Positions 12,246 to 61,118 of a DNA stretch of 64,000 nt are shown piece after piece. How positions within the stretch are numbered: the first letter of the stretch is position 1; the number at the start of each line of letters is the position of its first letter. The notes under the pieces are model-generated. The model saw only the letters and a list, made by a program, of their open reading frames with translations, was not told the DNA's origin and ran no database searches. The stretch covers positions 418,406-482,405 of the forward strand of contig CAWANI010000009.1 in assembly GCA_963783365.1 (NCBI GenBank), in the 5' to 3' direction. Source of the DNA: an uncultured delta proteobacterium. GTDB taxonomy: Bacteria; Desulfobacterota; Desulfuromonadia; Desulfuromonadales; CAWANI01. The position numbers were made by a program, and so were the translations under genes.

Positions 12246-12301
12246 GAAATACAGTTAATATTCGGAAAATGGAAAAATTTTAGTGCACTCCCAACTCAGC
12301 A

Positions 12302-41472: not shown

Positions 41473-43315
41473 GTGGATGAGATGCTTCCTTCAGAGTTGA
41501 CTTGTGTTTCTACGTCAGCGGATGATGGGCAATTCAAGGCTATGGCCGAATCGGCTCCCGTCATGATCTGGCTCTCGGGAACCGACCAGGACGGCACTTT
41601 TGTCAACCGGGCGTGGCGTCACTTCACCGGATGGAGTAAAGAGGAGGAGCCGGGAAGAGATTGGATCAAGCTGATTCATCCCGACGATCGAGAAAAAACC
41701 CTGGAAATTTCAGGAAAAGCATTCGAAGCCGTGGCGGCGTTCAGGCTGGAATACCGCCTTCGGCGATACGATGGCGTTTACCGCTGGGTTCTGGATAAAG
41801 GCGTGCCGCGGGTTACCGACGACGGCGTGTTCATCGGATACGTTGGTTTTTGTATCGATATCAGTGCGCATCGAGATCTTGAAAAGCAATTACAGGAGCT
41901 GAATGCTACCCTCGAGCAACGGGTCTCTGAGCGGACCGAATCCCTACAGGAAATCAACGCGACGTTAAAAAAAGAGATCGCCGAACGGAAAGGAATTGAA
42001 AAGGAGTTGCATCAAGGCCGGGCAGCCCTGGCGGCGCAGCATGCGGAACTGAACCGGGTGTTTCACCAGGTGGAGATGGCCAAGCGGGAGTGGGAAGCCA
42101 CCATGGACTGCATCGAGGACACCGTGGTCATTCTCGTCGACGACCTGGGGGCCATTCGTCGTTGCAACAGCGCCTTAGCCGAGTTGACGGGCTGCTCCTA
42201 TGGCGAATTGAAGGGGAAAAATGTCAAGAAGGTTCTGCGGGGATGTGGCTTCCACTGTGGGGAATGTTTCGCGAATGGCGAAGAAATCCGGCAGGAACCC
42301 AGCGGCCGGTGGTTTGTCTTGAGCAATTATCCCCTGAAGAATTCGGGGGCAGGGGGAGGCAAGGTTCTTGTTGCTCACGATTACACGAAGTTGAAAGGTC
42401 TCACCCAGCAGCTCGAGGAATCGAACCGGGAACTGGAGGCCAAGGGGCGGGAACTCGAAAGGGCCAACGCCGAGCTGAAAGAGACCCAGGTGAAAGTCCT
42501 GCAGCAGGAAAAGATGGCGACCATCGGTCAGCTGGCCGCCGGGGTGGCTCATGAGATCAACAATCCGATCGGATTTATCTCCAGCAATCTCGGGACCCTG
42601 GAGAAGTATATCGGAAAATTCACCGCTTTCATCGACGCCCAAACAACGCTCCTGCGGGAAGTGGGAGCGCAGGATGCCTTGGATGCCCTCGCCAAAAAGC
42701 GCCGGGAGCTCAAGCTCGACTTCGTCACCGAGGATATCGGCGACCTGATCCGGGAATCCCTGGGGGGGGCCGAGCGGGTGAAGAAAATCGTCCAGGACCT
42801 TAAGACTTTCTCCCGGGTGGACCAAGCCGAGTCCAAGTTCGTGGACCTGGTCGAGTGCATCGAAAGTACGGTGAATATCGTCTGGAACGAACTGAAATAC
42901 AAAGCGACACTGGAGAGGGAGTACGGGGATCTGCCGCTGATCAAGTGCTATCCCCAACAGTTGAATCAGGTCATCTTGAATTTACTGGTCAATGCCGGGC
43001 ACGCCATTGAAAAAGACGGCCGGATTACGCTGAAAGCTTGGCAGGAGGGCTTGGCCGTTTATTTTTCGGTTGCCGACAACGGTTGCGGCATCCCCCGGGA
43101 GAATCTGACCAAACTCTTCGAGCCCTTTTTCACCACCAAGGAGGTCGGTCAGGGGACCGGTCTCGGGTTGAGCATCGCCTACGATATCGTGAAAAAACAT
43201 CATGGCGAAATATCCGTCCGAAAGCGAAGTCGGTAAAGGAACGGCCTTTACCATCTCTCTGCCTCTGATAGACGTAGAGGGGGACGAGGTTGCTTCGGCG
43301 GGAACGATGGATTGA
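41473..43315 (+). CDS. PAS/PAS sensor histidine kinase; last ~30 codons off-frame as sequenced
   Basis: ORF 41473..43236. PAS (HPDDRE...YRLRRYDGVYRW), H-box [27 protein letters not shown]. Removing one C at 43218/43219 restores the standard end ISVESEVGKGTAFTISLP... with TGA at 43313-43315. Confidence 0.88.
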
Positions 43316-43360
43316 CTTTCCGGCATGACGATCTGATATCCTGAGGCTTCATACCTTGAA

Positions 43361-44233
43361 GTGTACGTTGAAGAAAACCTGCCGCCACCCATTACGATGA
43401 AGGAAGCGATGACTGAAGGGATTAAGATTCTTTGCGTCGATGACGAAAGAAACGTTCTGAGGGCTCTCGAGCGGCTGTTTCTGGACGATGACTACGAGAT
43501 ATTCTCTGCGCTCTCCGGCGAGGAAGGACTGGAGCGGCTCGCCGAAGAAGGGGATATCCAGATCGTCATCTCCGACTATCGGATGCCCGGCCTGAATGGC
43601 GTCGATTTTTTGCAGAAAGTCTGTACACAGTGGCCCCATACTGTCCGAATCGTGCTTTCGGGATATGCCGATACCGCGGCGGTGGTAGGAGCGATCAATG
43701 AAGGGCAGATCTACAAATTTATCCCCAAACCCTGGAACGACGATGAGCTGAGAGTCACAATCCAGAACGCCGTTGAACGTTATTTTCTGACCAGGCAGAA
43801 CGCCCTGCTGCTGGAAGAACTCCAGGCGGCCAATGAAAATCTGCGGTCGGTCAACGAAGGGCTGGAAGCTGAAGTCTTCGCCCGCACAGCCAAGCTGACC
43901 TGTCAAAATCAGGCGCTCACCGTGTCGCAGAATATCCTGGATGCCTTGCCTGTCGGCGTGGTCGGGGTCGATTCGACCGGTATGGTCGTCTGCTGTAATC
44001 AGGCGGGACGGGCCTTCTTTCAAGGCCGGGCGGATTTTATCCTGGGCAATTCATGTCGAAACCTCTTTCCCGAAGCGCTCCTGAATTTTCTGGAAGAGAT
44101 GGCGCAGGCGCAGGGACGAGGTCTGCGTTCGGAGGTTTCCTGGACGGCCAAGAGAGTGCGGGTTCAGGGGGCCCGGCTGGACCAGGACGATCAGGCCGGC
44201 ATCGTTCTGGTTCTGGATGTGGCGGGGAACTGA
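43361..44233 (+). CDS. Response regulator, REC + coiled coil + PAS-like output
   Basis: ILCVDDERN...IVISDYRMPGLNG...SGYAD...KFIPKPWNDDEL. The true start may be ATG 43397 or 43409 (RBS AAGGAAG). Confidence 0.85.
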   Translation: MYVEENLPPPITMKEAMTEGIKILCVDDERNVLRALERLFLDDDYEIFSALSGEEGLERLAEEGDIQIVISDYRMPGLNGVDFLQKVCTQWPHTVRIVLSGYADTAAVVGAINEGQIYKFIPKPWNDDELRVTIQNAVERYFLTRQNALLLEELQAANENLRSVNEGLEAEVFARTAKLTCQNQALTVSQNILDALPVGVVGVDSTGMVVCCNQAGRAFFQGRADFILGNSCRNLFPEALLNFLEEMAQAQGRGLRSEVSWTAKRVRVQGARLDQDDQAGIVLVLDVAGN

Positions 44234-44452
44234 TGGTGAACGGCGGGCACCGCGATTGCCGATCCCAATTGCGGCGGAATCTATCGCTTCATCGGCAAGT
44301 CCCGGGTTGAAGGCGAAGGTAATGGTGATGCTGAAGCCTGTCTGACCCGCATCCGCACCGTCCGGGATCTCGACCTCTGGGAGGATGAGACTGCGTCGCT
44401 CTTCCTGGACCATATCATCGCTCTTCATGCGAAAAAGGATATTCCCACGTGA
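44233..44452 (+). CDS. Small hypothetical protein (~72 aa), frameshifted near its start as sequenced
   Basis: ATG 44233 overlaps the upstream stop (TGATG). After dropping one G of GGG 44245-44247 the frame is open to TGA 44450-44452, which overlaps the next GTG start (GTGA). The aligned antisense frame is open, as is usual opposite real coding DNA. No homology recognised. Confidence 0.45.
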
Positions 44453-45793
44453 GTCAGGATTCTCTTCTAATAACGAGTGAGGCCGACGCGGAGGCAGCTA
44501 TCGGGGTTTTGTTTGTCGATGACGAGAAGAACATTCTCTCATCGATAAAACGACTCATGATAGACGAATCGTTTTCGATTTTCACCGCCGAGTCGGGCGA
44601 AGAAGGTCTGGAAATCCTGGCCTCGGAAGCCGACATCGGGCTGATCGTTTCCGATCAGCGGATGCCGGGGATGAGCGGCACGGTCTTTCTGGAAAAAGCC
44701 CGGGCCGCAGCACCGGACGCACTTCGCATCCTGCTCACCGGCTACGCCGACATCACGGCGACGATCGATGCCATCAACAAGGGGGGCGCCTATCGCTATA
44801 TCACCAAACCCTGGGTGGATGGCGAACTGCTGCAGACGGTCCGGGAGGGGGTGAAGACCTATCGGCTCACCCGCGAAAACCGGCGTCTGACGGCGATCGT
44901 TCAGAAGCAGAATGAGGAGCTCAAGGACTGGAATGCACAGCTTAAGTCCCGGGTCTTGCAGCAGACGGCTCGGATCAGGACGCAAAACGAGGATCTGTTC
45001 GCCCAAAACAGCCGCCTTCAAAGAAGCTATCGCGACACCATTGCGGCCATGTCCGGCCTGATCGAACTGCGCTCCAAGCAGCTGCGGAATCACAGTCGCA
45101 ACGTGGCGGCGCTCTCCGTTGCCGTGGCCGCCGCCATGGGGCTGGCCCGGGAAGAGGTCGAGCGGATTCAAGTCGCCTCCCTGCTTCACGACATCGGTAA
45201 AATTGGTACTCCCGATAGCCTTTCTCGCAAAAATGTTTCTGAACTGAGCCAGGAGGAGCGCGAAGAATACCTGCAGCATGCGGTGCGCGGCCAGATGGCC
45301 CTCGATGCCGTCGAGGAGCTGCGCCCGGCAGGAATTCTGATTCGGCACCACCACGAGCATTTCGACGGCAGCGGGTATCCCGACGGCTGCCGCGGGGAGG
45401 AGATCCCCCTGGGGGCGCGGATTATCGCCATCGCCGACTTTGTCGATCGGACCATCCAGACGATCTACGACGTCCAGGCCGTCTGTAAAACTCTGGGGGA
45501 ATTGGAGCAGAGCCTGGGGACCCTGTTCGATCCCCAACTTTTTCCGCACTTCGACACCTCTGTCAGGACGATCTACCGGCGGGATGCCACCGATGCCGAC
45601 CTCGTGGAGAAAATCGTAACACCGGATCAGCTTCGAGGAGGGGATGATCCTTGCGTCGGACCTTTTCAGCGGAACGGGACTTCTGCTCCTGGGCCGGGGG
45701 GAACGGCTGACCGGAAAGCGGATCGAGGCGATTCTGCGGCATCAGAAGCTCGATCCGGTCACGGGGTCGATTTCCGTGTTGGTAAAGGACTGA
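44449..45793 (+). CDS. Response regulator with HD-GYP c-di-GMP phosphodiesterase domain; C-terminal ~50 codons off-frame as sequenced
   Basis: REC (FVDDEKN, LIVSDQRMPGMSG, KPW). HD-GYP (HDIGKIG, HHEHFDGSGYPDG). Removing one G near 45636-45643 gives ...DQLREGMILASDLFSGTGLLLLGRGERLTGKRIEAILRHQKL...VLVKD with TGA at 45791-45793. Confidence 0.88.
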
Positions 45794-45796
45794 ACC

Positions 45797-46483
45797 GTGA
45801 TTGAATTCGACGAACAGGAACAGAAGATGGTTCTGAAGCTGGTCTATTACGGGCCGGCCCTGTCGGGGAAAACCACCAACCTGCTGCAGCTCCATGAACA
45901 GTTGCTGCAGGAGGGCCGGGGGGAGCTCATGGTCCTTGACACCAAGAACGACCGGACCATCTACTTCGACCTGCTTCCTTTCTTTCTGCGGGCCCCCAGC
46001 GGGCTGCGGATCAAGGTTAAGGTCTTTACCGTTCCCGGCCAGGTAAGGCACGACGCCACCCGCAAGGCGGTCCTTCAGCGGGCCGACGGGGTGGCCTTTA
46101 TCGCCGATTCTCAGCTTTCGGAGGCGGGAACCAATTTCAACAGCTTCGAAAACCTGGAGCAGAACCTCGCCTTCGTCGGGCTGGCCATCGATCGAATTCC
46201 TTTGGTTGTGCAGTTCAACAAGCGGGATCTGGACGCCATTGTTTCCGAAGAAGAGATTCGGCGGGTTTGGGGCCCCACCGGCATCCCGGTGTTGATGAGC
46301 ACCGCCCTGCAGGGCTGGGGCGTGGCCGAGACCTTCGCCCGGCTCGCCGCCATGACTTACGATCGCATCGACGCCCGCCATGGTCTGGAGAAAAACCACG
46401 GCCTGGACCGGGAGACGTTCCTGACTCAGCTTATCCGGCCCAGGGCGGGCGGGCCTCTGGAGGTTCCGGGGGCGAGGCCTTAG
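45797..46483 (+). CDS. MglA-family Ras-like small GTPase
   Basis: GTG start 3 nt after the corrected HD-GYP stop. KLVYYGPALSGKTTNL (P-loop), DRTIYFDLLP (switch I Arg-Thr), FTVPGQV (switch II), QFNKRDL (G4). Reads co-linear with MglA as I remember it. Confidence 0.85.
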   Translation: MIEFDEQEQKMVLKLVYYGPALSGKTTNLLQLHEQLLQEGRGELMVLDTKNDRTIYFDLLPFFLRAPSGLRIKVKVFTVPGQVRHDATRKAVLQRADGVAFIADSQLSEAGTNFNSFENLEQNLAFVGLAIDRIPLVVQFNKRDLDAIVSEEEIRRVWGPTGIPVLMSTALQGWGVAETFARLAAMTYDRIDARHGLEKNHGLDRETFLTQLIRPRAGGPLEVPGARP

Positions 46484-46573
46484 GTGGAAGGCTCCCAATC
46501 ATGAATAATTGATCGCCGATTGGCGGACACACGTTGCTCGTCACTGATCACTGCCTTAGCATCCGAGGAAAAG

Positions 46574-47869
46574 ATGACCCCGGGAGAAACTATCGAATTT
46601 GTCGTCGGCGAGGAAAAGCGCCTCCGCGATGTTCTGCGCGAAGCCGATGTTGCGCCGCTGCTGACCAGTGCGGTCAAGTCCGGCATCGCTCGGATCGCGA
46701 TTCACGACGAGAACGAAGCGGTGCTCTTCGCCTTCGATGGCAGCCGGCCGCATCATCCAGTAGATTCCTGGGACGAATCCCGACCCCTCCTTCTCGAAGG
46801 CGAACCGGTCGGCGCCATCCGTTTTCGGCGCGGCGCGGTCAACGCCGTCGGTTGCCGAATTCTGGCCGGCCTGGTGGCCGACGCCGTCAACAGCATGCTC
46901 GCCGCCAATCTGAAACGGATGCTGACCACCGAGATCCATACCAAGGTCGTCAACCAGTCCTACGAAGAGTTGCTGGAGAGTAACCGACGGCTGGCCGAGT
47001 CGGAAAAGAGATACCGAGACCTGGCGGAAAGCCTCGAAATCCGAGTGCGGGAGCGGACCGAGGAACTGCAGCGGGCTACCACACAGATGATTCAGCAGGA
47101 AAAGATGGCCTCCATCGGCCAGCTGGCCGCCGGGGTGGCCCATGAGATCAACAATCCCCTTGGCTTCATTCTCAGCAATCTGAACACCCTGGAGAAATAC
47201 GTCGGTCGGTTTGCCGCCATGCTGGCCTTCTACCGGGAAGCAGGCGGAGCGGCCGAGGCGGGTGAGAGAAAATGGCGCGAGCTGAAGCTCGATTATCTGC
47301 TCCAGGACGTCCCCGACCTGATCGCCCAGAGCATCACCGGGGCCGAGCGGGTCAAAAAGATCGTGGCCGATCTGCGGGGCTTTTCCCACGTCGACGACCT
47401 GGGCGAGGGGCCGATGGACCTCAATCAGGAGATCGAGAGGACCCTCGGCGTCCTCGTTCACGAGATTCCGCCCGGAGCGCGGATCGAGCGGAAATTCGGC
47501 CCGCTGCCGGCCATGGTCGGCCACGGCGGCCTGCTTTGCCAGGTTTTTTTGAATATCGTCCGCAACGCCTTTCAGGCCCGACCCGAAGGCCTGGAGCTGG
47601 AGATCGCCACCGAGTGCCGCGGGGATGCCGTACAGTTGCTTTTCGCTGACAACGGCCCCGGAGTTCAGGAGGAAATCAAGAACCGGATCTTCGAGCCCTT
47701 CTTCACCACCCGCCAGGTCGGCCGGGGAATGGGAATGGGGCTGACGGTGGTTCACGATGTCGTCACCGGCTTCGGCGGGACGGTGCAGGTGGAGGACAGG
47801 CCGGGGGGCGGGGCCGTCTTTGTCATTCAATTGCCGATGGGAGGGATATCGGATGGCCAAGTACGCTGA
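46574..47869 (+). CDS. Histidine kinase with an unassigned ~130-aa N-terminal region
   Basis: H-box [28 protein letters not shown] 46574 sits behind GAGGAAAAG; the ORF track starts at TTG 46520. No TM helix seen. Confidence 0.85.
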   Translation: MTPGETIEFVVGEEKRLRDVLREADVAPLLTSAVKSGIARIAIHDENEAVLFAFDGSRPHHPVDSWDESRPLLLEGEPVGAIRFRRGAVNAVGCRILAGLVADAVNSMLAANLKRMLTTEIHTKVVNQSYEELLESNRRLAESEKRYRDLAESLEIRVRERTEELQRATTQMIQQEKMASIGQLAAGVAHEINNPLGFILSNLNTLEKYVGRFAAMLAFYREAGGAAEAGERKWRELKLDYLLQDVPDLIAQSITGAERVKKIVADLRGFSHVDDLGEGPMDLNQEIERTLGVLVHEIPPGARIERKFGPLPAMVGHGGLLCQVFLNIVRNAFQARPEGLELEIATECRGDAVQLLFADNGPGVQEEIKNRIFEPFFTTRQVGRGMGMGLTVVHDVVTGFGGTVQVEDRPGGGAVFVIQLPMGGISDGQVR

Positions 47870-50282
47870 ATTGTTTCGCTCTCTGGCGGGCGAGCAAGCG
47901 GCGCCGGCCCGGGAAACGCCGCCGGAGGCGACCGATGAGCAGACCGACTTCACACTGCTTTTCGTCGACGATGAGCCGGGAGTGCTGCGGTCGCTGAGGC
48001 GGATCTTTCTCGATGAAAATTACCGCATTCTGACCGCCCCCGCCGGCGCCGACGCCCTCGAACTGATGGCGACGCAGAAGGTTCACCTCGTTATCTCCGA
48101 CCATCGCATGCCGGGGATGACTGGTGCCCAGCTCCTCAAGGAGATCAAGGAACGCTGGCCCGCGACGATCCGCATCATGCTCACCGGCTACGCCGATGTT
48201 CAGTCGATCATGGGGGCGGTCAACGAGGGGGCGGTCTACAAGTTCATCACCAAGCCCTGGAACGACGAGGACCTGCGCCTGACGGTGAGCCTGGCGCTGC
48301 AGCAATACGTGCTGTTGCAGGAGAACAAGAAACTCAAGGAGGTCACCCGCAAGCAGCAGGAGAAGATCAAGAACTTTTCCACCCTGATCGGGGACAACAA
48401 CGGCGTGCTGGGGAACCTTTTGGCCAATGCCGGCGTGGTGCAGAAGGCTGACTTCCATCGGGCGCTGCGGGAGCGGCAGGGAGGGGAGTTCGTCACCGAA
48501 ACCCTCGGTCGGCTCGGGCTCGTCAGCGAATCGAAGATCGTCAAGGTGCTCCAGGACAAGCTGCGCCTCGAATACGTCGACCTCAAGGAAGTACGCCTGT
48601 CCGGCGAGACGGTTCGCCTGCTGCCCCGCGAGCTGTGCGAGAAAAACCGGATGATTCCGATCAAGGTCGAAGGCCGCAACCTGACCCTCGCCATGGCCGA
48701 CCCCTCTGATATCTACAAATGCGACAACCTGGCCATGATGACGGGGTTCAAGATTCTGCCGGTGATTGCCCGAAGCACTGACATCCTGGGTCAGCTGCAG
48801 TCGGTCCATGGCTTCGAGGCCGGTGGCGGTGACATGGATTTCGACGAGATTCCCGACCTTGAGCCGATCGACGAGGTCGATATCGTCATCGAAGAGGATG
48901 AGAACGAGATCAACGTCCAGGAGTTGATCAACTCTTCGGAAGTTCCACCCATCATCCGGATCGTCAACTCCATCATCTCCGAGGCGATCCGCTACCGGGC
49001 AAGCGACATTCACATCGAACCGAAGACGAAGTTCACCGTGGTGCGCTTGCGCATCGACGGCATCCTGCACGACAAGATCCGCGTTCCCGCGGAACTGCAC
49101 CCCGCCGTCATCTCCCGGATCAAGATCCTGGCCAAGCTCGATATTTCCGAACGGCGCAAGCCCCAGGACGGCCGTATTACCGTGAAATCCGGCACCCGGA
49201 TGGTCGATCTGCGGGTCTCGACCATGCCCTCCATCAACGGGGAGAAGGTGGTTCTGCGCATTCTCGACAAGAGCGCGGCGATCAAGAAGCTCGACGAGCT
49301 GGGGCTGCTCAAAGAGGATCTGAAGAGCCTCCGCAGCGTGATCAAGAAGCCTCAGGGAATGATCATCGCCACCGGTCCCACGGGGAGCGGCAAAACCACC
49401 ATGCTCTACTCGGTGCTTGGCGAGATGCTCGAGCGCTCAAAGAACTTCGAGACGATCGAGGACCCGGTGGAGTATTTCCTCGAGGAGGCCAACCAGGTCT
49501 ACGTCCGGGAGAAGATCGGCCTCACCTTCGCCTCCGTCCTGCGGGCAACCCTGCGCCAGGATCCCGATGCCATCCTGGTCGGGGAGATCCGCGACCGGGA
49601 TACCGCCGACGTGGCCTTCAAGGCGGCTCTCACCGGGCACATGGTGCTCACCACCCTGCACACCAACAGCTCGGTGGCCTCCATCACCCGCCTGATCGAC
49701 ATCGGCATCCAGCCCTATCTGATCGCCTCCGCCCTCGAAGGGGTTGTCGCTCAGCGGCTGGTGCGGCGGTGCTGTAAGTACTGCAAGGTGGAGGAAGTCC
49801 CCGATCCGGAGCTGATGCAGCTCCTGCGCGTTTCTCCGGATCTTGTCGGGCCGTCGGCCTTTCGCGGCGCCGGCTGCCCCCGCTGCAACAATACCGGCTA
49901 TCTCGGGCGCACCGGCATCTACGAGCTGTTCGTCATGAATGAGGATTTCCGCCACCTGATCTCCGAGAACTACCGGGAGTCGGAGCTGCTCGGGCTGGCC
50001 CGCGGCAACGGGATGAAAACCTTGATCGAAGACGGCCTGGCCAAGGTCCGTCAGGGAGAGACGACCCTCGCCGAGCTGCTGCGGGTGCTGGGCCCCCAGA
50101 TCCGGCACGAGCGGGTCTGCAAGAGCTGCCGCAGAACTATCGATGCCAAGTTCCTCTTTTGTCCCTACTGCGGAGCATTCAAGCAGAACGTCTGCGTCAA
50201 ATGCAAACTGCCGATGGAGGAGGACTGGAGCCTCTGCGCGTTCTGCGGGCATCCTCGGTCCTCCATTGAATGTTGTTCCTGA
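47853..50282 (+). CDS. Receiver-fused PilB/GspE-type (T2SSE) ATPase with a C-terminal double zinc ribbon
   Basis: ATG 47853 behind GGGAGGG. REC (FVDDEPG, VISDHRMPGMTG, KPW). T2SSE_N-like segment. Walker A GPTGSGKTT, Walker B DAILVGEIRD, His box GHMVLTTLHTN, CKYC...CPRC. Tail contains CKSC, CPYC, CVKC and CAFC. Confidence 0.9.
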   Translation: MAKYAELFRSLAGEQAAPARETPPEATDEQTDFTLLFVDDEPGVLRSLRRIFLDENYRILTAPAGADALELMATQKVHLVISDHRMPGMTGAQLLKEIKERWPATIRIMLTGYADVQSIMGAVNEGAVYKFITKPWNDEDLRLTVSLALQQYVLLQENKKLKEVTRKQQEKIKNFSTLIGDNNGVLGNLLANAGVVQKADFHRALRERQGGEFVTETLGRLGLVSESKIVKVLQDKLRLEYVDLKEVRLSGETVRLLPRELCEKNRMIPIKVEGRNLTLAMADPSDIYKCDNLAMMTGFKILPVIARSTDILGQLQSVHGFEAGGGDMDFDEIPDLEPIDEVDIVIEEDENEINVQELINSSEVPPIIRIVNSIISEAIRYRASDIHIEPKTKFTVVRLRIDGILHDKIRVPAELHPAVISRIKILAKLDISERRKPQDGRITVKSGTRMVDLRVSTMPSINGEKVVLRILDKSAAIKKLDELGLLKEDLKSLRSVIKKPQGMIIATGPTGSGKTTMLYSVLGEMLERSKNFETIEDPVEYFLEEANQVYVREKIGLTFASVLRATLRQDPDAILVGEIRDRDTADVAFKAALTGHMVLTTLHTNSSVASITRLIDIGIQPYLIASALEGVVAQRLVRRCCKYCKVEEVPDPELMQLLRVSPDLVGPSAFRGAGCPRCNNTGYLGRTGIYELFVMNEDFRHLISENYRESELLGLARGNGMKTLIEDGLAKVRQGETTLAELLRVLGPQIRHERVCKSCRRTIDAKFLFCPYCGAFKQNVCVKCKLPMEEDWSLCAFCGHPRSSIECCS

Positions 50283-50345
50283 CGCCCCGGCACCCCTTAC
50301 GAATTCCACCTTCCGGCCAGGCGGCGCGAAGAAAGGCGAAAGCGG

Positions 50346-50900
50346 ATGAAAAATGCCATTTTGATCGTGGACGATGAGGAGCAGGTTATCCATGCCCTAC
50401 GGCGGTCGCTGGCCGACGAAGACCTTGAGATTTTCTCAGCCGGCAGCGGGGAGGAGGCCCTGGAGCTGATCGCCTCGCGGTCCTTCAAGGCCATCGTGTG
50501 CGACGAGCGGATGCCGCGGATGTCCGGGGCCGAGCTCCTCTCCCTGCTTCGGTCCCGGCACCCGGAAACAGTGCGCATCCTGTTGACCGGCCACGCCACC
50601 CCCGAGGCCGCCATGAAGGCGGTGAACCAGGGGGAAATCTACCGGTTTTTCGCCAAGCCGTGGAACGACTTCGACCTGAAACTCGCCATCCGCTCGGCGA
50701 TCGAAAAATACGACCTCGAGATGAAAAACCGCAAACTGCTGGCCCTGGTCCGCCACCAGGCCCGAACCCTGGAGCATCTGGAAAGCGCCTACCCCGGGCT
50801 CACCCGGACCGGACAGGGCGCGGATGGCAGCTTCTTTATTCCGGAGCTCTCCGACGAGGAGGTGACCCTGATCCTGCGGGAATGCCAGGTGGCTCGGTGA
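50346..50900 (+). CDS. Stand-alone response regulator receiver protein with a short C-terminal extension
   Basis: IVDDEEQ, IVCDERMPRMSG, LTGHAT, FAKPWNDFDL. Confidence 0.88.
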   Translation: MKNAILIVDDEEQVIHALRRSLADEDLEIFSAGSGEEALELIASRSFKAIVCDERMPRMSGAELLSLLRSRHPETVRILLTGHATPEAAMKAVNQGEIYRFFAKPWNDFDLKLAIRSAIEKYDLEMKNRKLLALVRHQARTLEHLESAYPGLTRTGQGADGSFFIPELSDEEVTLILRECQVAR

Positions 50901-50969
50901 AGGAATGATCCGTGGAGACTTTGACCGTTTTCGGGAAAGCAGCGTAGCGTCCAGAGACCTTTGCCCGGC

Positions 50970-51572
50970 TCATTTGGGGGCGGGATAGTAATAGTCCAGA
51001 CAGATCGGGCAAAGCCCGTGGCTGATGTTGTGAGGGGGAGATGCCACGAAGGCGGGGATCCAGTCCCACCGGTTCGCCGTCACGAGGTTTCGAATTCTTC
51101 GGCAACAGGCGCATTGGTGAATGATGCCGTCGCGGTCGATGTAATCGTCGGGCGTTCCTTCCTCGGGTGGTTCCTCCACCGGCCGTTCGACCAGCAGGCT
51201 GTTGACCACCAGAAACCCTTCCGATTTTCCGAGCGGATAAACGATCTGGTGCATCAATCGATAGAGTTCCGGCGACGAACAGTCATATGTGTGCTTCCAG
51301 GGGTGCCCGGCTTTGAGGCATGCGGCAAAGCCCTCCGTGAAGAATCCGAGGAGCACATCGGGAATGGCGCTCAGAAGGGAGCTTCCCAACCGCCAATTCC
51401 GGGAAATCCGCGGTTCCCCCCCGTTCTCCCGAGAAAAGCGGAACCAGCCGTCATTGAAATAAGAAAAGGTCAGATCGGGCCAGAGGCCGAAGTTCGTATG
51501 TTCGATATTGTTCAACGCCTCCGGATCGAACCCCGCCAGGATTTTTTGAAATTCAGGATCCATCACGGGCAT
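50970..51572 (-). CDS. Hypothetical protein with a C-terminal Cys/His-rich motif
   Basis: ORF 50970..51602. Likely start at ATG 51572 (MPVMDPEF). C-terminus HQCACCRR...W.W...ISHGLCPICLDYYY. No family recognised. Confidence 0.55.
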   Translation of the reverse strand: MPVMDPEFQKILAGFDPEALNNIEHTNFGLWPDLTFSYFNDGWFRFSRENGGEPRISRNWRLGSSLLSAIPDVLLGFFTEGFAACLKAGHPWKHTYDCSSPELYRLMHQIVYPLGKSEGFLVVNSLLVERPVEEPPEEGTPDDYIDRDGIIHQCACCRRIRNLVTANRWDWIPAFVASPPHNISHGLCPICLDYYYPAPK

Positions 51573-51731
51573 AACAGACTCCGCATGGCAAGATGTTATC
51601 AAGAATCTTACCTCAGAATGGCGCCACCGGTAAAAAAATCTCCCGCCGCAAACCCTCCCGAATCAAAAAGTGAGTTTTTTTGAATTGAGCCCACGATGGT
51701 CCTGCCGAAGGCGTCTGTCGGCTCACCGCCC

Positions 51732-52739
51732 TCACCAGGTCCCCCGACCGAAGAGTCTGTCGTACCGAGAGTTGTCCCCGGGACGGTTTTCGAAACATTC
51801 CCGATAGGCCCGGGGCATGCCGGCTGCCAGCAGTGTGCTGACGGTGACAAATCGGTATCCTTTCTTGCGCAGTTTGGGAATGTAGAGTGGCAGGGCTTCG
51901 GCGGTATGCCATCCCCGGCCGTTGGCGTGGCCGATGATGATCGCGCCGGGGCGCGCTTGCCGAAGGACGAGGCGTGCGATCCGGCGCGCGCTCTGACGAC
52001 GGACCGGATCGCCGGTGACAATGCTCCACTGAATGGCGGCGATCCCCTGCCGGGCCAGAAAATCGAGGGGCTCCGGCCGGCAGGTGCCGTAAGGAAAGCG
52101 AAACAACGTGGGGGCATCAGGGATCTCGGCGAGGGCCCTGCGCCCTGCTCGCAGGGCGCAGCGGCTTTGTTTAAGGCGCTCGGCCAGCCATTCGTACTCG
52201 CCCTGGGCGAACAGGATCTGGTTTTTCATCTGCTGGCCGGTGATCATCCGCAGATTGCCGTGGGTCCACGCGTGATTGCCTACCTCGAAAAGCGGGTCGG
52301 CCATCAGTTGCATGGCCTTCTGCGGATGGGTCTTCATCCATTTGCCGCCGGCGAAAAAGGTGGCCCTCACCTTGTGCCTGCGCAAGTAATCGACGATCCG
52401 ATAATCGTAGCCGGCCCTTTCATTCTCCCGCTCGCAGAGATCGAACGTCAGGGCCAGCAGCTTTTCCTTTCCGCGCAGTTTCACGGACCGGATCGAGCCG
52501 CGCAGCGCCGCGGGCAGGGGGGCGAGACGGCGGAGGGGAACCGCCCGGTCGGGGGGCATCGGCTGGGGGCCCTTGTGGTAGGGGCGGCGAACGATCCTGT
52601 CCCCGGCAGTGCCGGCAAGTTGGACCGGAGACCAGCAGGCATGAAGAGCCCCGTTCGACCCGAAAACGAGCCCCTCGCCTCTGGCACCTGCGGGAAAAAG
52701 GAGAAGCGCGGCAGCCAGAAGGATTGAATATCGGAACAT
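51732..52739 (-). CDS. Secreted polysaccharide deacetylase family protein (NodB homology domain)
   Basis: ATG 52739 behind GAGGGA. Signal peptide MFRYSILLAAALLLFPAGARG. LALTFDLCE, RATFFAGG, GNHAWTHG. Confidence 0.8.
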   Translation of the reverse strand: MFRYSILLAAALLLFPAGARGEGLVFGSNGALHACWSPVQLAGTAGDRIVRRPYHKGPQPMPPDRAVPLRRLAPLPAALRGSIRSVKLRGKEKLLALTFDLCERENERAGYDYRIVDYLRRHKVRATFFAGGKWMKTHPQKAMQLMADPLFEVGNHAWTHGNLRMITGQQMKNQILFAQGEYEWLAERLKQSRCALRAGRRALAEIPDAPTLFRFPYGTCRPEPLDFLARQGIAAIQWSIVTGDPVRRQSARRIARLVLRQARPGAIIIGHANGRGWHTAEALPLYIPKLRKKGYRFVTVSTLLAAGMPRAYRECFENRPGDNSRYDRLFGRGTW

Positions 52740-53127
52740 TTTCCCTCTCAATGTAATCACCCTTGTTTCACAACCCATCCGTGAAGGGATTTTTTTTCCT
52801 CCATTGATGCTGACCCGGGTCGCTGAGGCTAAACCGGCCTGAACAGGCGAGCCCTCAATTGGCGGTCTCACATACTTTTCAAACGCCCGGAATCTGTTTC
52901 TTACCACAAATTCTGCGGATTTTCCCGGGAAAAGACCAATCGGCGGCGCCCTTCAGATCGTGTTCGATTGAAAATGGAGGTGCGGGAGGAGGCTGGCGGC
53001 CCTTTTCCCGCTTCTGCACCAACTGGGCCTTGATTCCGACGGTCGGTTGTGCCATATTGCGGGACGCGCCGCGGGTTTTGCCCCGATCGGCCGCCTGAGT
53101 CCCACGACATTCAAATGGAGGTTTGTG

Positions 53128-53694
53128 ATGAAAAAGGTCCTTATTTTTATGGTGCTTCTGAGCCTCGTCGCGGTCCAGGCCGAGGCGGCATCGATGGAAA
53201 TCGACCTCAACGACAACAGCGTCCAGGCGGGGTTTTCCACCCCGCTGCGCATGGATGAATACGGCACGTCCTTGCTGAACGCCCGTCTACTTTATAACGA
53301 CAACAAGGACACCACGCTGGGGTCTGCGGGATTCGATTTTCTCGGTCAGCCGGGCAACGTGCCGGGGCTCGATCTGGGCGTCGGCGCCCAGGTCTACGGA
53401 GGGCAGGCCGCCGACAGCCAGAACATCCTGTCCCTGGGAATCGGCGGACGGGTGAGCTATGCCCCGCCGATGCTGGAAGGGGTCGGAGTGTCGGGAAAAT
53501 TCTTTTACGCCCCGCACATTCTCTCCCTGCTCGACGTCGATCGCATGCTCGAAACGGGCGTGCGGGTCAGCTACGCCATCACTCCGAAGGTCAAGGTCTA
53601 CCTCGGCTATCAGTACATCCGTGCCGATTTCGACAACGGGGATGACGGTGCGATCGACGACAGCGCCCGGGTCGGCTTTGAGGCAAACTTCTAG
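53128..53694 (+). CDS. Outer-membrane beta-barrel protein (YfaZ-like)
   Basis: ATG 53128 behind GGAGG. Signal peptide MKKVLIFMVLLSLVAVQAEA. Alternating beta-strand pattern with C-terminal ...GFEANF. Confidence 0.7.
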   Translation: MKKVLIFMVLLSLVAVQAEAASMEIDLNDNSVQAGFSTPLRMDEYGTSLLNARLLYNDNKDTTLGSAGFDFLGQPGNVPGLDLGVGAQVYGGQAADSQNILSLGIGGRVSYAPPMLEGVGVSGKFFYAPHILSLLDVDRMLETGVRVSYAITPKVKVYLGYQYIRADFDNGDDGAIDDSARVGFEANF

Positions 53695-54559
53695 TTCGAA
53701 GAGGGGGAAAGTCCTTTTCCCGGCTGAAGACAATGGTGGGAATGGCATCGAAACGGGTGGGTCGCCGGCAGGGTTGGCGACACACCCGTTTTGCTTTTAC
53801 GCCCAGAAGGGCCCGGACCACCTCGCCCGCCATGGTGAGCCCGAAGATGGGGGGGATATAGGAGGAGCTGCCGAGAATGACGCGGCGGTCGGTGCAGTGC
53901 CACGACTGCTCCTCCCGGTTGGGGCAGATGCAGTTTTCGGCGCAGACGTTGGCAGCGTTTCCCAGGGGGAGAAATTCCTCGGTGGAATAGACCACCTTGA
54001 CCCCGGAGGAGATGCCGCGGCGGCGAAGTTCCTTGCGCAGCACCCGGGCCAGGCGGCACTTTTGCGTCTGGAACAGATCGGCCACGGCGATCTTGGTCGG
54101 GTCGAGCTTGTTGGCCGCTCCCATCGAGGCGATGATCGGAATACCGGCCTCCTTGCAGCTCTGGATGAGGTGCAGTTTGGCGGTGATGTGATCGATGCAG
54201 TCGAGAACGAAATCGTATCCGCGATGCAGCAGCTCGGCCGCGTTTTGCGCCGTGTAGAAGGCCTTGATCGGCTCGACTTGGAGAGCCGGATGGATAGCCC
54301 GACAGCGCTCTGCCATGATCCGGACCTTGGGGTGGCCGATGGTCCCCTCCAGGGCATGGATCTGGCGGTTGGTGTTGGTCAGGCAGATATCGTCGAAATC
54401 GATCAGGGTCAGCCGGCCGATGCCGGCTCGCGCCAGGGCTTCGGCGGCGAAGCTGCCGACCCCGCCGACGCCGAAGACGGCCACCGAGGCGGCGGCGAGG
54501 CGGGCCTGCCCCGCCTCGCCGACCAGAAGTTCCATGCGGGAAAAGCGATGTTGTTTCAT
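53591..54559 (-). CDS. tcdA: tRNA threonylcarbamoyladenosine dehydratase (TcdA/CsdL, ThiF family); 3' end uncertain
   Basis: ThiF Rossmann motif VAVFGVGGVGSFAAEALARAG, DFDDICLTNTNRQ. The last ~70 codons of the ORF run through the terminator hairpin and overlap the convergent gene, so the real stop may lie near 53.8 kb. Confidence 0.75.
   Translation of the reverse strand: MKQHRFSRMELLVGEAGQARLAAASVAVFGVGGVGSFAAEALARAGIGRLTLIDFDDICLTNTNRQIHALEGTIGHPKVRIMAERCRAIHPALQVEPIKAFYTAQNAAELLHRGYDFVLDCIDHITAKLHLIQSCKEAGIPIIASMGAANKLDPTKIAVADLFQTQKCRLARVLRKELRRRGISSGVKVVYSTEEFLPLGNAANVCAENCICPNREEQSWHCTDRRVILGSSSYIPPIFGLTMAGEVVRALLGVKAKRVCRQPCRRPTRFDAIPTIVFSREKDFPPLRTRSLPQSRPGRCRRSHRHPRCRNRHGCTDSRGRP
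53751..53798 (+). terminator. Intrinsic terminator downstream of the beta-barrel gene
   Basis: AAACGGGTG-G-GTCGCC / GGCGAC-A-CACCCGTTT inverted repeat (15 paired nt, 9-nt loop) followed by TTTTGCTTTT. Confidence 0.7.
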
Positions 54560-54592
54560 CGTGGTTGCATACGTAGGAAAAGGGTTGAATTA

Positions 54593-54662
54593 CCTCCAGC
54601 CTCCAGCCTCCAGCCGCCAGCCGCCAGCCTCCAGCTGTCAGCTGTCAGTCACTGGTCACTGA
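54593..54662. repeat. Heptanucleotide tandem-repeat array (10 units)
   Basis: CCTCCAG x3, CCGCCAG x2, CCTCCAG x1, CTGTCAG x2, then TCACTGG and a partial TCACTG unit, all contiguous. It fills the tatD-tcdA intergenic space and overlaps the last tatD codons. Confidence 0.9.
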
Positions 54663-55440
54663 TTTTCAAAATCCTTGAGGCGTTTTCCGTTGTGATCCGT
54701 GCCACCTTCTCTTCGCTCCACCCCCGGATTTCGGCCACCCTGGCGGCCACCAGAGGGAGGTACGCCGGGTGGTTCTCTTCGCCGCGGTGGGGATGGGGCG
54801 CCTGGTCCGGAGCGTCGGTTTCGAGGACAATCCATTCCGGGGGGATCCTCTTCAGCACCTCTGGGCCGCGGCGGGCTTCGGGGAAGGTGACGGCGCCGCC
54901 GAAACCGATGGCGAACCCCATCTTGATGGCTTCCTGAGCGGTTTCGAAGCTTCCTGAAAAGCCGTGCAGGATACCGCCCACCGTGGCGGACCCCTCCTCC
55001 TTCAGAATCCGCAGAAGGTGGTCCGTTGCCCTGCGGCAATGGATCAGAATCGGCCGGCCGGCGGCGACCGCAAGGCGCGCCTGGGCGCGAAAGGCGTGCT
55101 CCTGAAGTTCTGTGGCGACGTCCTTCAGCTGGGCGTCGAGGCCGATCTCGCCCACTGCCGCGACGGCCGGATCCGCCAACAGGGTGGCCAGCTCCGCCTC
55201 GGCATCCCGGGTCCACTGGGCCGCGGCCTGGGGGTGCAGACCGGGCGCCGCCCAGACGCCCGGCACCGAATGGGCCAGGCTCAGGATCTGCGCCCACCCC
55301 TCCCGGGCCACCCCAGGGATCAGATAGCGCCGCACCCCGCCCAGTCGCGCCTGAGCCAGCTCCTGTTCGAGGGCCTTGCGCAGAAGGGGGGCGTCAAGGT
55401 GAACGTGGGTATCGAAAAGAAAAGGCGCTTCCCGGATCAT
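54649..55440 (-). CDS. TatD-family metal-dependent hydrolase
   Basis: FDTHVHL, GEIGLD, ILHGFSGS, ETDAPD. ATG 55440 (MIREAPF) lies within ORF 54649..55506. Confidence 0.88.
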   Translation of the reverse strand: MIREAPFLFDTHVHLDAPLLRKALEQELAQARLGGVRRYLIPGVAREGWAQILSLAHSVPGVWAAPGLHPQAAAQWTRDAEAELATLLADPAVAAVGEIGLDAQLKDVATELQEHAFRAQARLAVAAGRPILIHCRRATDHLLRILKEEGSATVGGILHGFSGSFETAQEAIKMGFAIGFGGAVTFPEARRGPEVLKRIPPEWIVLETDAPDQAPHPHRGEENHPAYLPLVAARVAEIRGWSEEKVARITTENASRILKISDQ

Positions 55441-55587
55441 CGGTAATGATGCTATCATAACCACCGCCTTCAGGGGAAGATGGCCCGGGTGATTAATCCT
55501 TGCCATCGACCGGGGGTTCGTGTTAAGAGCTAAGAGGTTGAATTTTCATCAAAAAGTATTCGATATCGGCAGGCATGGAGGCGCATT

Positions 55588-57318
55588 ATGGCGCAAGCGA
55601 CCGTCAGGAACCGCTCGTATATCAGAAAACTTCTCCTCATCACGCACCTTGTCGGCTTGGTCGCAGGGGCGCTCTTTCCCTTCCTGACTCTACCGCTTCT
55701 CGGCCCTGCCGCCCTGACCCTCCCCTTCTTTCTTCTCTGTCTGGCGATGGGCTGGGGGGTGGGAGCGCTCATCTTTCTGGTCGTCAACGCCACCCTCAAA
55801 AGCCAGCTGCGCCGCCAGATCGCCCTGCTGCGCCCTCTGGCCGGAGAGATCGCCGTTTCGGGCGATTCGCCCGAGCAGCTGCAGGAGGCGGTTGAGCTCT
55901 CGGTGTCCCAGGTCGAGGCTTTCATCCGTGAACTGTTCTCCACCCTCGATGAGCTGATCCCCCATCACCGCTCCTTGAGCGAGTTGAGCCGGTACATGAG
56001 CGATCGGGCGCAGGAGGGGCTCGCCGCGGCCCGCACCACCCGCCAGGATATCGAAGCGATCGAAGAGAAACAGGACGGGGTTCTCGCCCAGGTTGAGAAC
56101 CTCTCGGAGCGCTCTCAGGACGAAGCCGCCCTCTCCCGCGAGCTCTCCGCCTCACTGGAGGAGATGGCCGATGCCATGGAACACTCCACCGGCCAATTCC
56201 TCGAAACCACCAATACCGTCGACGAGATGGCCAGCAGTATCCGGGAAGTTGCCCTGCAGGCCGACGAAATCGCTCTTTCGGTAGAGAGCACGGCTCACGA
56301 TCTCGATGCCATTGGCGATTCTCTGGAAAAGATCCGTGGTGGCGCCTACGATAGCGCGCAAGAGGCAGAAACGGTGAGAAAAGACGCCGATGAGGGGTTT
56401 GCCGTCGTACAGAGCGCCATCGAGGAGATGGAGCGGATCGAAGAGGAGAGTCTCAAGGCCACCGAGGCCATGGAACGTCTTTCCTTTCAGACGGGAGAGG
56501 TTGCCAAAATCATCCAGGTGATCCGGGAACTCGTCTCCGATACGGAGCTGCTGGCCTTCAACGCGGCGATTATCGCGGCGAAGGCCGGAGAGGACGGCAA
56601 AGGGTTCTCGGTGGTCGCCGATGAGATTCGGGATCTGGCCGACCGCACCACGGCCAGCGCCCAGGATATTCACCGCATCGTCAAGGCGATCGGCGGCGAC
56701 ACCCAGGAGGTGACAGAAGCGGTCGCCGCCACCGGCCGGCGCATCGGCAAGGGAAAGCAGCTCTCCCTCTCCACCGGCGAGGCGCTGCGCAAGATCGCCG
56801 CCAGTTCCAGTCAGGCCGCCAGAACCTCCGAAGAGATCGCCATTCTTACCCGCGAACAGGGGGAGCGCGCCCGGGCGCTGTTGAACGACGCCGGCAGCAG
56901 TCTGCGGTCGGTGCAGTCCATTGCCCGCGCCATGCAGGAGCAAGGGACCGGCATCACCCGGATTCAGGAAGGGGTCACCCAGATGAAGGCCGCCTCGGAC
57001 CAGATCGCCCGAGGAATGGAGGAGCAGGTGCGGGCCAACCGCCAGTTCGATAAAGGGCTGTCCGAGCGAGAGACGCAGGTGCAGACGATCTTCGAAGCGA
57101 CTCAGTTCTGGAAGATTACGGCGCAGAAGGTCTTTTCCCACTTCGCGACCTCGGAGGTCAGGCTGACGAAAAATGCCGAAAAGGCCGCCTTTCTCACCCG
57201 CGAGGTGGCGACCCTGGAAAAACTTGCCGACAAATTGAAGGACAAGGCCGAGGTCTTCGAACGCCCCGAGCCCGAAAGCGCCCGCGAGTCGGCGTCGGTG
57301 GCCGCATTCCAAGAGTAG
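55588..57318 (+). CDS. Methyl-accepting chemotaxis protein
   Basis: Two N-terminal TM helices. Highly conserved signalling hairpin LLAFNAAIIAAKAGEDGKGFSVVADEIRDLADRT. Confidence 0.92.
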   Translation: MAQATVRNRSYIRKLLLITHLVGLVAGALFPFLTLPLLGPAALTLPFFLLCLAMGWGVGALIFLVVNATLKSQLRRQIALLRPLAGEIAVSGDSPEQLQEAVELSVSQVEAFIRELFSTLDELIPHHRSLSELSRYMSDRAQEGLAAARTTRQDIEAIEEKQDGVLAQVENLSERSQDEAALSRELSASLEEMADAMEHSTGQFLETTNTVDEMASSIREVALQADEIALSVESTAHDLDAIGDSLEKIRGGAYDSAQEAETVRKDADEGFAVVQSAIEEMERIEEESLKATEAMERLSFQTGEVAKIIQVIRELVSDTELLAFNAAIIAAKAGEDGKGFSVVADEIRDLADRTTASAQDIHRIVKAIGGDTQEVTEAVAATGRRIGKGKQLSLSTGEALRKIAASSSQAARTSEEIAILTREQGERARALLNDAGSSLRSVQSIARAMQEQGTGITRIQEGVTQMKAASDQIARGMEEQVRANRQFDKGLSERETQVQTIFEATQFWKITAQKVFSHFATSEVRLTKNAEKAAFLTREVATLEKLADKLKDKAEVFERPEPESARESASVAAFQE

Positions 57319-57698: not shown

Positions 57699-57890
57699 TT
57701 ATCCTTCCCTCACCCCGAGTTTGCGCAGAATCGTCATCATCGGACACCAATCGGTGAAAGCGCTCTGAAAAAGATTCAGACCGACAAAGGCGGTGAACAG
57801 ATACCAGTAGGGGGAGACGGCGTAGCCCAGCAGCAGGCTGAGCAGGATGAAAAAGCCGGCGATCAGGCGCAGGTAACGGTTAACGGTCAT
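57699..57890 (-). CDS. DUF2892 (YgaP-like) small membrane protein
   Basis: MTVNRYLRLIAGFFILLSLLLGY...FQSAFTDWCPMMTIL. ATG 57890 overlaps the RND stop (ATGA). Confidence 0.75.
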   Translation of the reverse strand: MTVNRYLRLIAGFFILLSLLLGYAVSPYWYLFTAFVGLNLFQSAFTDWCPMMTILRKLGVREG

Positions 57891-60800: not shown

Positions 60801-61115
60801 CGTAGAAGCGGGCGGTGACCACCGCCATGCCGGGGCGGGACATGGAGTAGACGTACTCCACCCCGTCGACCTGCCAGAGGAGCTTCTCCAGGGGGGTGGC
60901 GACGAGCTTCTCCACCTCCTTGGCGCTCGCCCCCGGCATGTGGACGTAGACGTCGGCCAGCGGCACCACGATCTGCGGCTCCTCCTCCCGGGGGGTCAGC
61001 ATCAGCGCCGCGGCGCCGGCCACCAGGGCGAGCAGGATGAGGATGACCGACAGGTTGCCGTCGAGGAACTTGTCGACGATGCGGGTCGGCAGGGAGTGTT
61101 TCCGACGCTCGCCAT
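57887..61115 (-). pseudogene. RND efflux permease (CzcA/CusA/AcrB superfamily); 5' third disrupted by at least six frameshifts as sequenced
   Basis: ORF 57887..60097 is an intact 736-aa C-terminal part. The N-terminal part is spread over three frames: IVDKFLDGNLSVILILLAL..., VDRLQSVKNTSVTTVIGGRPRQVRV..., FERDDQEILVRGGTFF..., YQAVNIAVAKKKGTNAV... ATG at 61115. Confidence 0.85.
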
Positions 61116-61118
61116 CGA

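Follow-up and report, generated by a model that had tools for sequence, protein, structure and literature searches.

The known controls of pilus assembly ATPases act in trans: cyclic diguanylate (c-di-GMP) acts on the MshEN domain, PilZ/FimX and PilG/PilH provide further inputs, and MglA acts via SgmX. PilB fused to a receiver domain (REC) goes entirely unmentioned in a review of PilB regulation from 2024. For the MshEN domain two 24-residue motifs are defined, in which Arg-1 stacks on guanine, the backbone of Gly-3 reads the base, and Gln-24 binds ribose and phosphate (Wang et al. 2016, Nat Commun 7:12481). The same study lists a REC-MshEN-T2SSE architecture, for which Geobacter metallireducens Gmet_3473 is the example (Suppl. 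Table 4). A gene of this architecture, extended by a C-terminal double zinc ribbon (DZR), is described here from a 64-kb stretch of contig CAWANI010000009.1 of an uncultured delta proteobacterium. That stretch is referred to as the window; all coordinates are positions in it, and amino acid (aa) numbers refer to the 809-aa ATPase unless the kinase is named. The gene may well encode a response-regulator form of the PilB/GspE-family hexameric ATPases that serves as the motor output of a GTPase-kinase-ATPase signalling module, a reading that has about an even chance of being correct. The domain anatomy, residue conservation, synteny and motif degeneration set out below are observed features of the family, and control of the motor by phosphorylation appears well supported by sequence and context.

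Anatomy and conservation of the receiver-ATPase fusion

More than 120 near-full-length homologs of the protein occur in Desulfuromonadota and Nitrospirota. The best 120 database matches, from Desulfuromonas, Geobacteraceae, Geomonas, Geoalkalibacter, Geothermobacter and Nitrospirota, are all 786-831 aa long and 65-95% identical, and all have REC, MshEN and T2SSE; 87 of them also carry a precomputed match to the DZR profile PF12773. Conservation was counted in an alignment of 121 sequences, in which the receiver residues D39, D40, D83, T111 and K134 are invariant (121/121), as are the DxxMP and TKPW signatures; K134 as the receiver lysine corrects an earlier description. Equally invariant are Walker A, E536 and E540, the Walker B residues D570-D572, V576-E578, R580 and D581, H596 and H603 of the His box, the tetracysteine (C641, C644, C675 and C678), and all eight DZR cysteines together with P771, G774, W792 and G799. 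Mean identity among the folded parts is lowest in MshEN_N (50%), and reaches 77% in REC, 83% in N2E and 73% in CTE. Because of this invariance, which points to strong selection and not to chance, the protein looks like an active receiver fused to an active motor and followed by a real zinc-ribbon tail, and the description in an earlier note of a complete ATPase core and an intact receiver pocket was borne out.

That note, made from the sequence alone, had divided the gene into four regions, all of which are recovered by profiles for REC, MshEN, T2SSE and DZR and by an AlphaFold2 (AF2) model; all the motifs that it quoted occur in the protein. The true start of the gene is ATG 47853, since a GGAGGG Shine-Dalgarno sequence lies 8 nt 5' of it and homologs share the N-terminal peptide M-x-K-Y-x-E-L-F. 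A longer open reading frame (ORF) from ATG 47757 was rejected because the added codons fall within the upstream kinase gene. M1, L7 and F8 of the N-terminal peptide are near-invariant in the 121 homologs, and aa 2-10 form a helix in the AF2 model with low confidence. This peptide (aa 1-10) has the appearance of a docking motif. Before the receiver lies a hypervariable linker of ~20 residues (aa 11-32), whose mean identity in the 121 homologs is only 14%.

The receiver matches PF00072 over aa 36-144 (E 5e-24) and is modelled with a predicted local distance difference test (pLDDT) score of ~90. The solved receivers nearest to it in the PDB are HupR (2jk1) and that of a REC-HD protein (2rjn), with NtrC1 and DctD also among the nearest. 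Some fused receivers work without phosphorylation, and HupR, the closest solved receiver, is active when unphosphorylated. The receiver of the ATPase could likewise be a phosphorylation-independent scaffold that tethers the motor to a kinase/GTPase complex, but with all five phosphorylation residues and both the DxxMP and TKPW signatures invariant, and with two kinases and a possible phosphate-sink receiver encoded in the same operon, such a pseudo-receiver is very improbable. The long alpha5-linker helix that joins REC to MshEN_N has a mean family identity of 73%, and the operon's three further receivers have linkers of the same type.

MshEN_N is modelled as four helices (aa 185-193, 198-206, 214-220 and 226-237; pLDDT ~85). 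The PilB equivalog profile TIGR02538 aligns from its model position 2 at residue 186, and residues 10-118 of Vibrio cholerae MshEN (PDB 5HTL) align with aa 186-293 (E 7e-12). The match to PF05157 covers only the alpha/beta N1E half, and the two 'LG-rich helices' that had been noticed upstream are the MshEN_N subdomain. P338, E341 and D343 are invariant in the acidic linker that follows N1E. In the ATPase core the PF00437 match spans profile positions 5-370 of 370 and includes Walker A (508-516), the Asp box (533-541), Walker B (570-581) and the His box (594-605), while C641/C644/C675/C678 form the predicted zinc site of the CTE that is typical of extension-type ATPases. Geobacter PilB (5tsg) is the best overall sequence match (E 1.9e-136), and the core, with all functional motifs there, shares 40-45% of its residues with bona fide PilB proteins. 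The protein scores 556.2 bits against the TIGR02538 PilB equivalog, for which the cutoff is 675.65, and 538.6 bits against the TIGR02533 GspE equivalog, for which it is 630.25; scored on the core only, PDB matches to GspE (371.5 bits) and PilF (373 bits) are equal.

The four CxxC pairs of the DZR are spaced C756-x2-C759-x10-C770-x2-C773-x7-C781-x2-C784-x10-C795-x2-C798, with CPxCG and CxFCG signatures, and the tail is modelled with a pLDDT of 66-81. Against PDB sequences it gave only an insignificant match to the zinc knuckle of methionyl-tRNA synthetase (E 0.8). Profile searches back both the T2SSE_N and the zinc-ribbon assignments made earlier, PF05157 with an E value of 1.6e-19 and PF12773 with one of 9e-6, the latter at 26.2 bits and hence 1.1 bits short of the gathering score of 27.3.

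Degeneration of the c-di-GMP motifs in MshEN_N

Alignment to 5HTL, PilF and PilB, the PF05157 match and the AF2 model agree that the protein has the MshEN fold, with the four-helix bundle and N1E both there. The two motifs within the bundle (I, aa 185-208; II, aa 213-236) are degenerate for c-di-GMP. Position 1 of motif I, canonically R, is I, V, M, A or F in the family and R or K in 0/121; it is V in the window protein, so that alignment confirms the earlier remark that the MshEN match is only partial, with V for R at this position. Position 24 of motif I (canonical Q) is R or K in 96/121 sequences and Q in 4/121. In motif II, position 1 (canonical R) is F in 100/121, position 3 (canonical G) is S, I or T (Ile in 30/121) and G in only 23/121, and position 24 (canonical Q) is H in 68/121 and Q in 11/121. 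The window protein departs from the consensus at position 1 of motif I and, in motif II, at position 1 (F), position 3 (T) and position 7 (G). The GSPII-A domain of PilF, an experimental non-binder, differs from the consensus at six key positions; motif II accounts for five of these, and a return to the consensus failed to bring binding back (PMC12002112). In the window protein both motifs are altered at comparable contact positions.

The relaxed motif expression of Wang et al. was run on 150 representatives and matched no REC-fused representative. It proved too strict, with a tandem match in only ~10/136 non-REC proteins, and was replaced by a 14-position score. By this score, at least five of the six contact residues are kept in 0/12 REC-fused and 32/123 non-REC representatives, a contrast drawn from a heuristic scan and not significant alone (Fisher p = 0.069). 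Six non-REC DZR-tailed proteins (P0179, P0190, P0211, P0220, P0229 and P0232) have textbook motifs with 6/6 contact residues. The length of the spacer between the motifs, four residues here and five in MshE, was set aside as evidence, since Geobacter PilB has a spacer of 6-7 residues, as do several proteins with canonical motifs. On sequence grounds, the MshEN_N bundle reads as one in which c-di-GMP input was replaced by phosphorylation input.

The earlier note had suggested that the motor is gated both by phosphorylation and by c-di-GMP. The first part of this suggestion is well supported; the second is not, the contact positions of both motifs being replaced family-wide. A dual gate would call for c-di-GMP, or a related cyclic dinucleotide such as 3',3'-cyclic GMP-AMP (3',3'-cGAMP), to bind at a non-canonical site in MshEN_N, with the HD-GYP protein of the operon setting the local ligand level. 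The MshEN_N fold is retained and confidently modelled, but it is also the fastest-evolving folded part of the protein. Motif I keeps L2, G3, L6 and G10 and a hydrophobic residue at position 17, but R/K is gone at position 1 of both motifs, Q is largely gone at both positions 24, and most sequences have lost the G at position 3 of motif II. Although a perfect motif is not needed for binding (Wang et al., Nat Commun 7:12481), PilF GSPII-A has fewer contact deviations and does not bind (PMC12002112). The family-invariant polar residues E212, R220, E226 and Q234 could form another ligand site. A REC-HD-GYP gene is in the operon at most loci, but it is missing or divergent at some loci (L008, L040) that keep the GTPase-kinase-ATPase order. 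When the whole window was scanned with Rfam and the operon leader more sensitively, neither a GEMM or other cyclic-dinucleotide riboswitch nor one of any other class came up. A dual gate of this kind is judged unlikely.

The GTPase-kinase-ATPase triad and its operon

Fourteen loci, the window included, have enough upstream sequence for the gene order to be followed, with ATPase identity down to 46%. The order GTPase, histidine kinase, REC-PilB is kept in 14/14 (window, L001, L002, L004-L010, L034, L035, L040 and L043), and the kinase and ATPase genes are joined by overlaps or tiny gaps across the loci. At L040, where the ATPase is 50% identical, the triad is a bare three-gene operon. The triad tracks the REC fusion and not the zinc ribbon, since it is kept at L043, whose ATPase is 46% identical and lacks the DZR. 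It also persists at those loci, such as L008 and L040, where the HD-GYP gene is absent or divergent.

The GTPase of the window matches Myxococcus xanthus MglA (5ymx) with an E value of 9.5e-44 and has the MglA hallmarks, which are the P-loop, the intrinsic Arg, TVPGQ and NKRD. Across the loci the GTPase is 54-76% identical, but the canonical MglA encoded in the same genome shares just 41-43% with it. At L035 it coexists with a canonical mglB-mglA pair (1049-2145 of that locus, ~5 kb upstream of the module), to the MglA of which it is 43% identical; the canonical Geobacter MglA and MglB are GSU0099 and GSU0098. By these sequence measures the GTPase is a true MglA homolog and a separate paralog.

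The triad belongs to an operon of seven genes on the + strand (41473-50900; Table 1), which includes the HD-GYP gene that the earlier note had placed there, found again by profile and motif. The HD-GYP protein has an intact HHExxDGxGYP motif and scores 437.5 against NF053512 (NosR-family), for which the cutoff is 400. The kinase gene of the triad, with its stop at 47869, overlaps the start of the ATPase gene by 17 nt. Identity among the operon's four receivers is 41-48%, alpha5 linkers included; the lone receiver at its end is 50-57% identical in most loci. The H-box helices of the two kinases are near-identical. From its sequences the operon reads as one branched phosphorelay, and the HD-GYP protein, having a receiver of the same type as that of the ATPase, would be a parallel output of this phosphorelay rather than evidence of a c-di-GMP input. 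When the operon was scanned for promoters and terminators, signals were no more frequent than in shuffled sequence. Both kinase cores have NCBIfam NF038348 'T2SS_HK' as their best match, with scores of 299 (41473-43236) and 212 (46520-47869) that are under its cutoff of 450 bits.

From sequence and context we infer phosphorylation partners, an effect on ATPase activity, a role for the GTPase and a partner machine, as follows. The upstream kinase, whose gene is translationally coupled to that of the ATPase, would phosphorylate D83 of the receiver, and so, probably, does the PAS kinase that heads the operon, since its H-box helix is almost identical. The 42-residue alpha5-linker helix may, in analogy to NtrC1/DctD/HupR-type receivers, relay the resulting change to MshEN_N/N1E, where it would toggle either assembly of the ring or engagement of the ATPase with its partner. 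The same kinases would feed the REC-PAS, REC-HD-GYP and REC-only proteins, as parallel outputs or as a phosphate sink, and because the three paralogous receivers would share these kinases, motor activity and c-di-GMP breakdown might be co-regulated. MshEN_N would have kept its fold and lost the canonical c-di-GMP contacts, with phosphorylation as the substitute input. The MglA paralog may modulate the kinase or localise the complex, the DZR would by default be a zinc-stabilised accessory and probably a docking module, and the membrane machine, which might be a type IV pilus or type II secretion-like, would be encoded elsewhere in the genome. A bolder proposal, tentative and with more to be said against it than for it, is that the triad is a self-contained, undescribed pathway in which the state of a G protein is read by a roadblock-like kinase and transmitted by His-Asp transfer onto the motor, replacing c-di-GMP on a zinc-ribbon PilB clade.

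Several points tell against reading the gene as the phosphorylation-controlled motor of such a module. The upstream kinase's N-terminal domain (kinase aa 1-125, 46520-46900) is modelled by AF2 as a helix, four strands and a long helix (pLDDT 77), and the top Foldseek matches of the model are MglB and Ragulator roadblock proteins (E 0.013, TM ~0.5) with GAF-like folds close behind. A comparison of this domain with MglB by hhalign profiles was negative (probability 0.6%). The likeness to MglB/Roadblock is thus a weak, model-based lead, though a roadblock-like kinase domain beside an MglA paralog would be meaningful if confirmed. Motif I of MshEN_N retains G3 and G10, the hydrophobic or aromatic residues at position 1 could stack on guanine, and c-di-GMP might still bind since binding by MshEN is mainly hydrophobic. 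Known binders deviate from the consensus too, as in M. xanthus PilB, which has N at position 10 and Q at position 21 of motif I, and the motif contrast between REC-fused and non-REC proteins does not by itself reach significance. The protein scores under both the PilB and the GspE equivalog cutoffs, and it is by homology that it is called an assembly ATPase.

Table 1. Features of the operon, of the ATPase gene and of the flanking region, in window coordinates
Feature	Position	Strand	Basis or remark
PAS histidine kinase	41473..43236	+	operon head; profile search
REC-PAS protein	43361..44233	+	profile search
REC-HD-GYP, predicted c-di-GMP phosphodiesterase	44449..45804	+	HD_5, REC; HHHEHFDGSGYP in sequence
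MglA-paralog small GTPase with C-terminal extension	45797..46483	+	GPALSGKT, DRT, TVPGQ, NKRD
Histidine kinase, cognate candidate; N-terminal domain without assignment	46520..47869	+	HATPase_c, HisKA
REC-MshEN-T2SSE-DZR ATPase, whole gene (809 aa + stop)	47853..50282	+	uninterrupted translation, profiles
N-terminal peptide M-x-K-Y-x-E-L-F, aa 1-10	47853..47882	+	conserved; variable linker aa 11-32 after it
Receiver (REC), aa 33-137, with D39/D40/D83/T111/K134	47949..48263	+	PF00072, invariant residues
Long alpha5-linker helix, aa 138-180, joining REC to MshEN_N	48264..48392	+	AF2 single helix 138-179
MshEN_N four-helix bundle, aa 185-237	48405..48563	+	aligned to PilB, PilF, MshE; AF2
N1E / MshEN_C alpha-beta subdomain, aa 237-318	48561..48806	+	PF05157 E 1.6e-19; AF2 pLDDT 80-91
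Acidic flexible linker, aa 321-364	48813..48944	+	AF2 pLDDT <50 over aa 322-352
PilB/GspE ATPase core N2E+CTE, aa 364-744	48942..50084	+	PF00437 E 1e-129
DZR tail, aa 756-799, four CxxC pairs	50118..50249	+	PF12773 E 9e-6
Single-domain receiver with ~60-aa C-terminal extension	50346..50900	+	last operon gene; profile search
Polysaccharide deacetylase	51732-52907	-	real gene under shadow ORFs, unrelated to operon
ThiF	53591-54559	-	real gene under shadow ORFs, unrelated to operon
TatD	54649-55506	-	real gene under shadow ORFs, unrelated to operon
Methyl-accepting chemotaxis protein gene	55588-57318	+	outside conserved module

Downstream of the operon, + strand ORFs at 50961-55446 (240, 343, 492 and 160 aa) were considered as further members and rejected as P/R/G-rich shadows of minus-strand genes. 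The window covers the chromosomal replication-origin region (6189-28160), where gyrA, gyrB, recF, dnaN (12255-13421) and dnaA (13888-15066) lie on the minus strand and are followed on the plus strand by yidC, jag, mnmE, mnmG, rsmG, parB and atpA. Between 12 and 18 kb the GC content falls to 0.43-0.49. In Geomonas, too, the orthologous operon is near the end of the chromosome record. A resistance-nodulation-division (RND) efflux locus occupies 57887-63036 on the minus strand, where ORF 60043-63036 comprises OEP, HlyD and the AcrB profile up to about its position 140, and ORF 57887-60097 comprises AcrB profile positions 319-1020; the AcrB frame seems to be interrupted at 60.05-60.10 kb, or several genes are merged in one chance ORF.

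Partner machine, zinc-ribbon relatives and comparison with known systems

Among the ORFs scanned in the window, which left out a few small ones, there is no PilC/GspF, PilM, pilin or secretin, and no pilus or secretion genes are annotated in the 14 REC-fused loci or in four non-REC loci that encode a DZR-tailed ATPase. The co-encoded machinery (PilC, PilM, pilins) by which a PilB may be recognized was accordingly not found at these loci. The distribution of the tail was surveyed with a regular expression for four CxxC pairs on the 135 classifiable nearest representatives at 50% identity, and the tail was found in 58 of them, 8 REC-fused and 50 non-REC. A large non-REC PilB-like clade of 620-660 aa has the same DZR tail and often canonical MshEN motifs (e.g. 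P0158, P0166, P0179, P0193 and P0211). The four non-REC DZR ATPases whose loci were inspected, all on Nitrospirota contigs (L036-L039), are stand-alone genes, that of L039 lying directly downstream of comEC and another near PilZ and REC-HD-GYP genes. The DZR was probably inherited from this wider clade of stand-alone PilB-like ATPases.

It is conceivable that the DZR clade works independently of any such machine, as motors that act on some other target (DNA uptake, a polarity complex or a cytoplasmic substrate) to which the zinc ribbon binds. The lack of nearby pilus or secretion genes at 14/14 REC-fused and 4/4 non-REC DZR loci would fit such an orphan ATPase, but motor ATPases are often encoded apart from their machines. 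Its scores fall below both the PilB and GspE equivalog cutoffs, but the core is as close to bona fide PilB as stated above and keeps every functional motif. The position of a non-REC member directly after comEC at L039 is suggestive, and in Geobacter species the role of PilB is already filled by a canonical protein that is highly conserved (GSU1491); on the other hand, N1E, whose homologous counterpart contacts the PilM/GspL stator, is well conserved and includes a PilB-like 'AMADPSD'. For target binding by the zinc ribbon, the tail offers no solved homolog, its best PDB match having an E value of 0.8, and the docking or nucleic-acid binding that the earlier note had proposed for it would be speculative. 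An orphan role of this sort is considered improbable, and a receiver-controlled motor for a machine encoded elsewhere is the reading retained.

The architecture is neither rare nor new, being catalogued and unstudied. The window protein has the domain order of the entry of Wang et al. (2016) and comes from the same lineage, the delta-proteobacteria in the old sense, but that entry gives no function, zinc-ribbon tail or gene neighbourhood, and Gmet_3473 was compared by its catalogue description only. Wang et al. treat MshEN as a presumptive c-di-GMP receptor, whereas the motif here is degenerate family-wide. The earlier note had allowed that the architecture might prove common and already functionally assigned; it is common and catalogued, with no function assigned. 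No mention of Gmet_3473 was found in the searchable literature, and searches on Geobacter, MglA, PilB and receiver found no account of the module. In a survey covering the Ras-like GTPases of prokaryotes, the neighbourhoods of MglA groups 1, 4 and 5 were found to vary, and no description of the triad is given. Three features appear to be undescribed: the degeneration of the MshEN site, the ancestral clade with a DZR, and the conserved triad of GTPase, kinase and motor.

A motor that bears its own receiver and is always preceded by a dedicated kinase and an MglA paralog would offer a compact system in which to study phospho-switching of PilT/GspE-class hexamers, the coupling of bacterial small GTPases to two-component signalling, and an evolutionary swap of motor inputs in which phosphorylation takes the place of c-di-GMP. 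It also draws attention to a large, unstudied clade of DZR-tailed PilB-like ATPases in Nitrospirota and Desulfuromonadota, two groups of importance to extracellular electron transfer and to the cycling of metals and nitrogen.

Among characterized ATPases, the PilB proteins of G. metallireducens (5TSG/5TSH) and M. xanthus and PilF of Thermus thermophilus have the same order of MshEN_N, N1E, N2E and CTE, the same boxes and the tetracysteine. The window protein differs from PilB in that it adds a receiver and a DZR, scores below the TIGR02538 cutoff and is not encoded beside pilT/pilC, and its MshEN motifs are degenerate whereas those of Geobacter and Myxococcus PilB are canonical. The N-terminal region of V. 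cholerae MshE (5HTL) is homologous, with the same four-helix and alpha/beta layout, but in the window protein the equivalents of Arg9/Arg38 and Gln32/Gln61 are replaced, that of Gly40 mostly so, and a receiver is fused upstream. An MglA-family GTPase is also tied to a PilB-type ATPase in M. xanthus, where MglA acts with SgmX, and SofG positions PilB and PilT. In Myxococcus this link operates in trans via adaptors and the genes are unlinked, whereas here the MglA paralog, the kinase and the receiver-fused motor are encoded in one operon, in which there is no gene for MglB. The actinobacterial conservons (CvnA kinase, CvnB roadblock, CvnC and CvnD MglA-like GTPase) likewise place a GTPase beside a histidine kinase, but they have a separate roadblock protein and lack a response regulator, whereas the operon described here encodes four receivers and no separate roadblock protein. 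NtrC1 and DctD offer an analogy for the proposed transmission of the signal in that they too have a receiver and a long alpha5 coiled-coil linker in front of an oligomeric ATPase, which in their case is an AAA+ sigma-54 activator and in the window protein is a PilT/GspE-class ATPase of the additional strand, catalytic E (ASCE) division.

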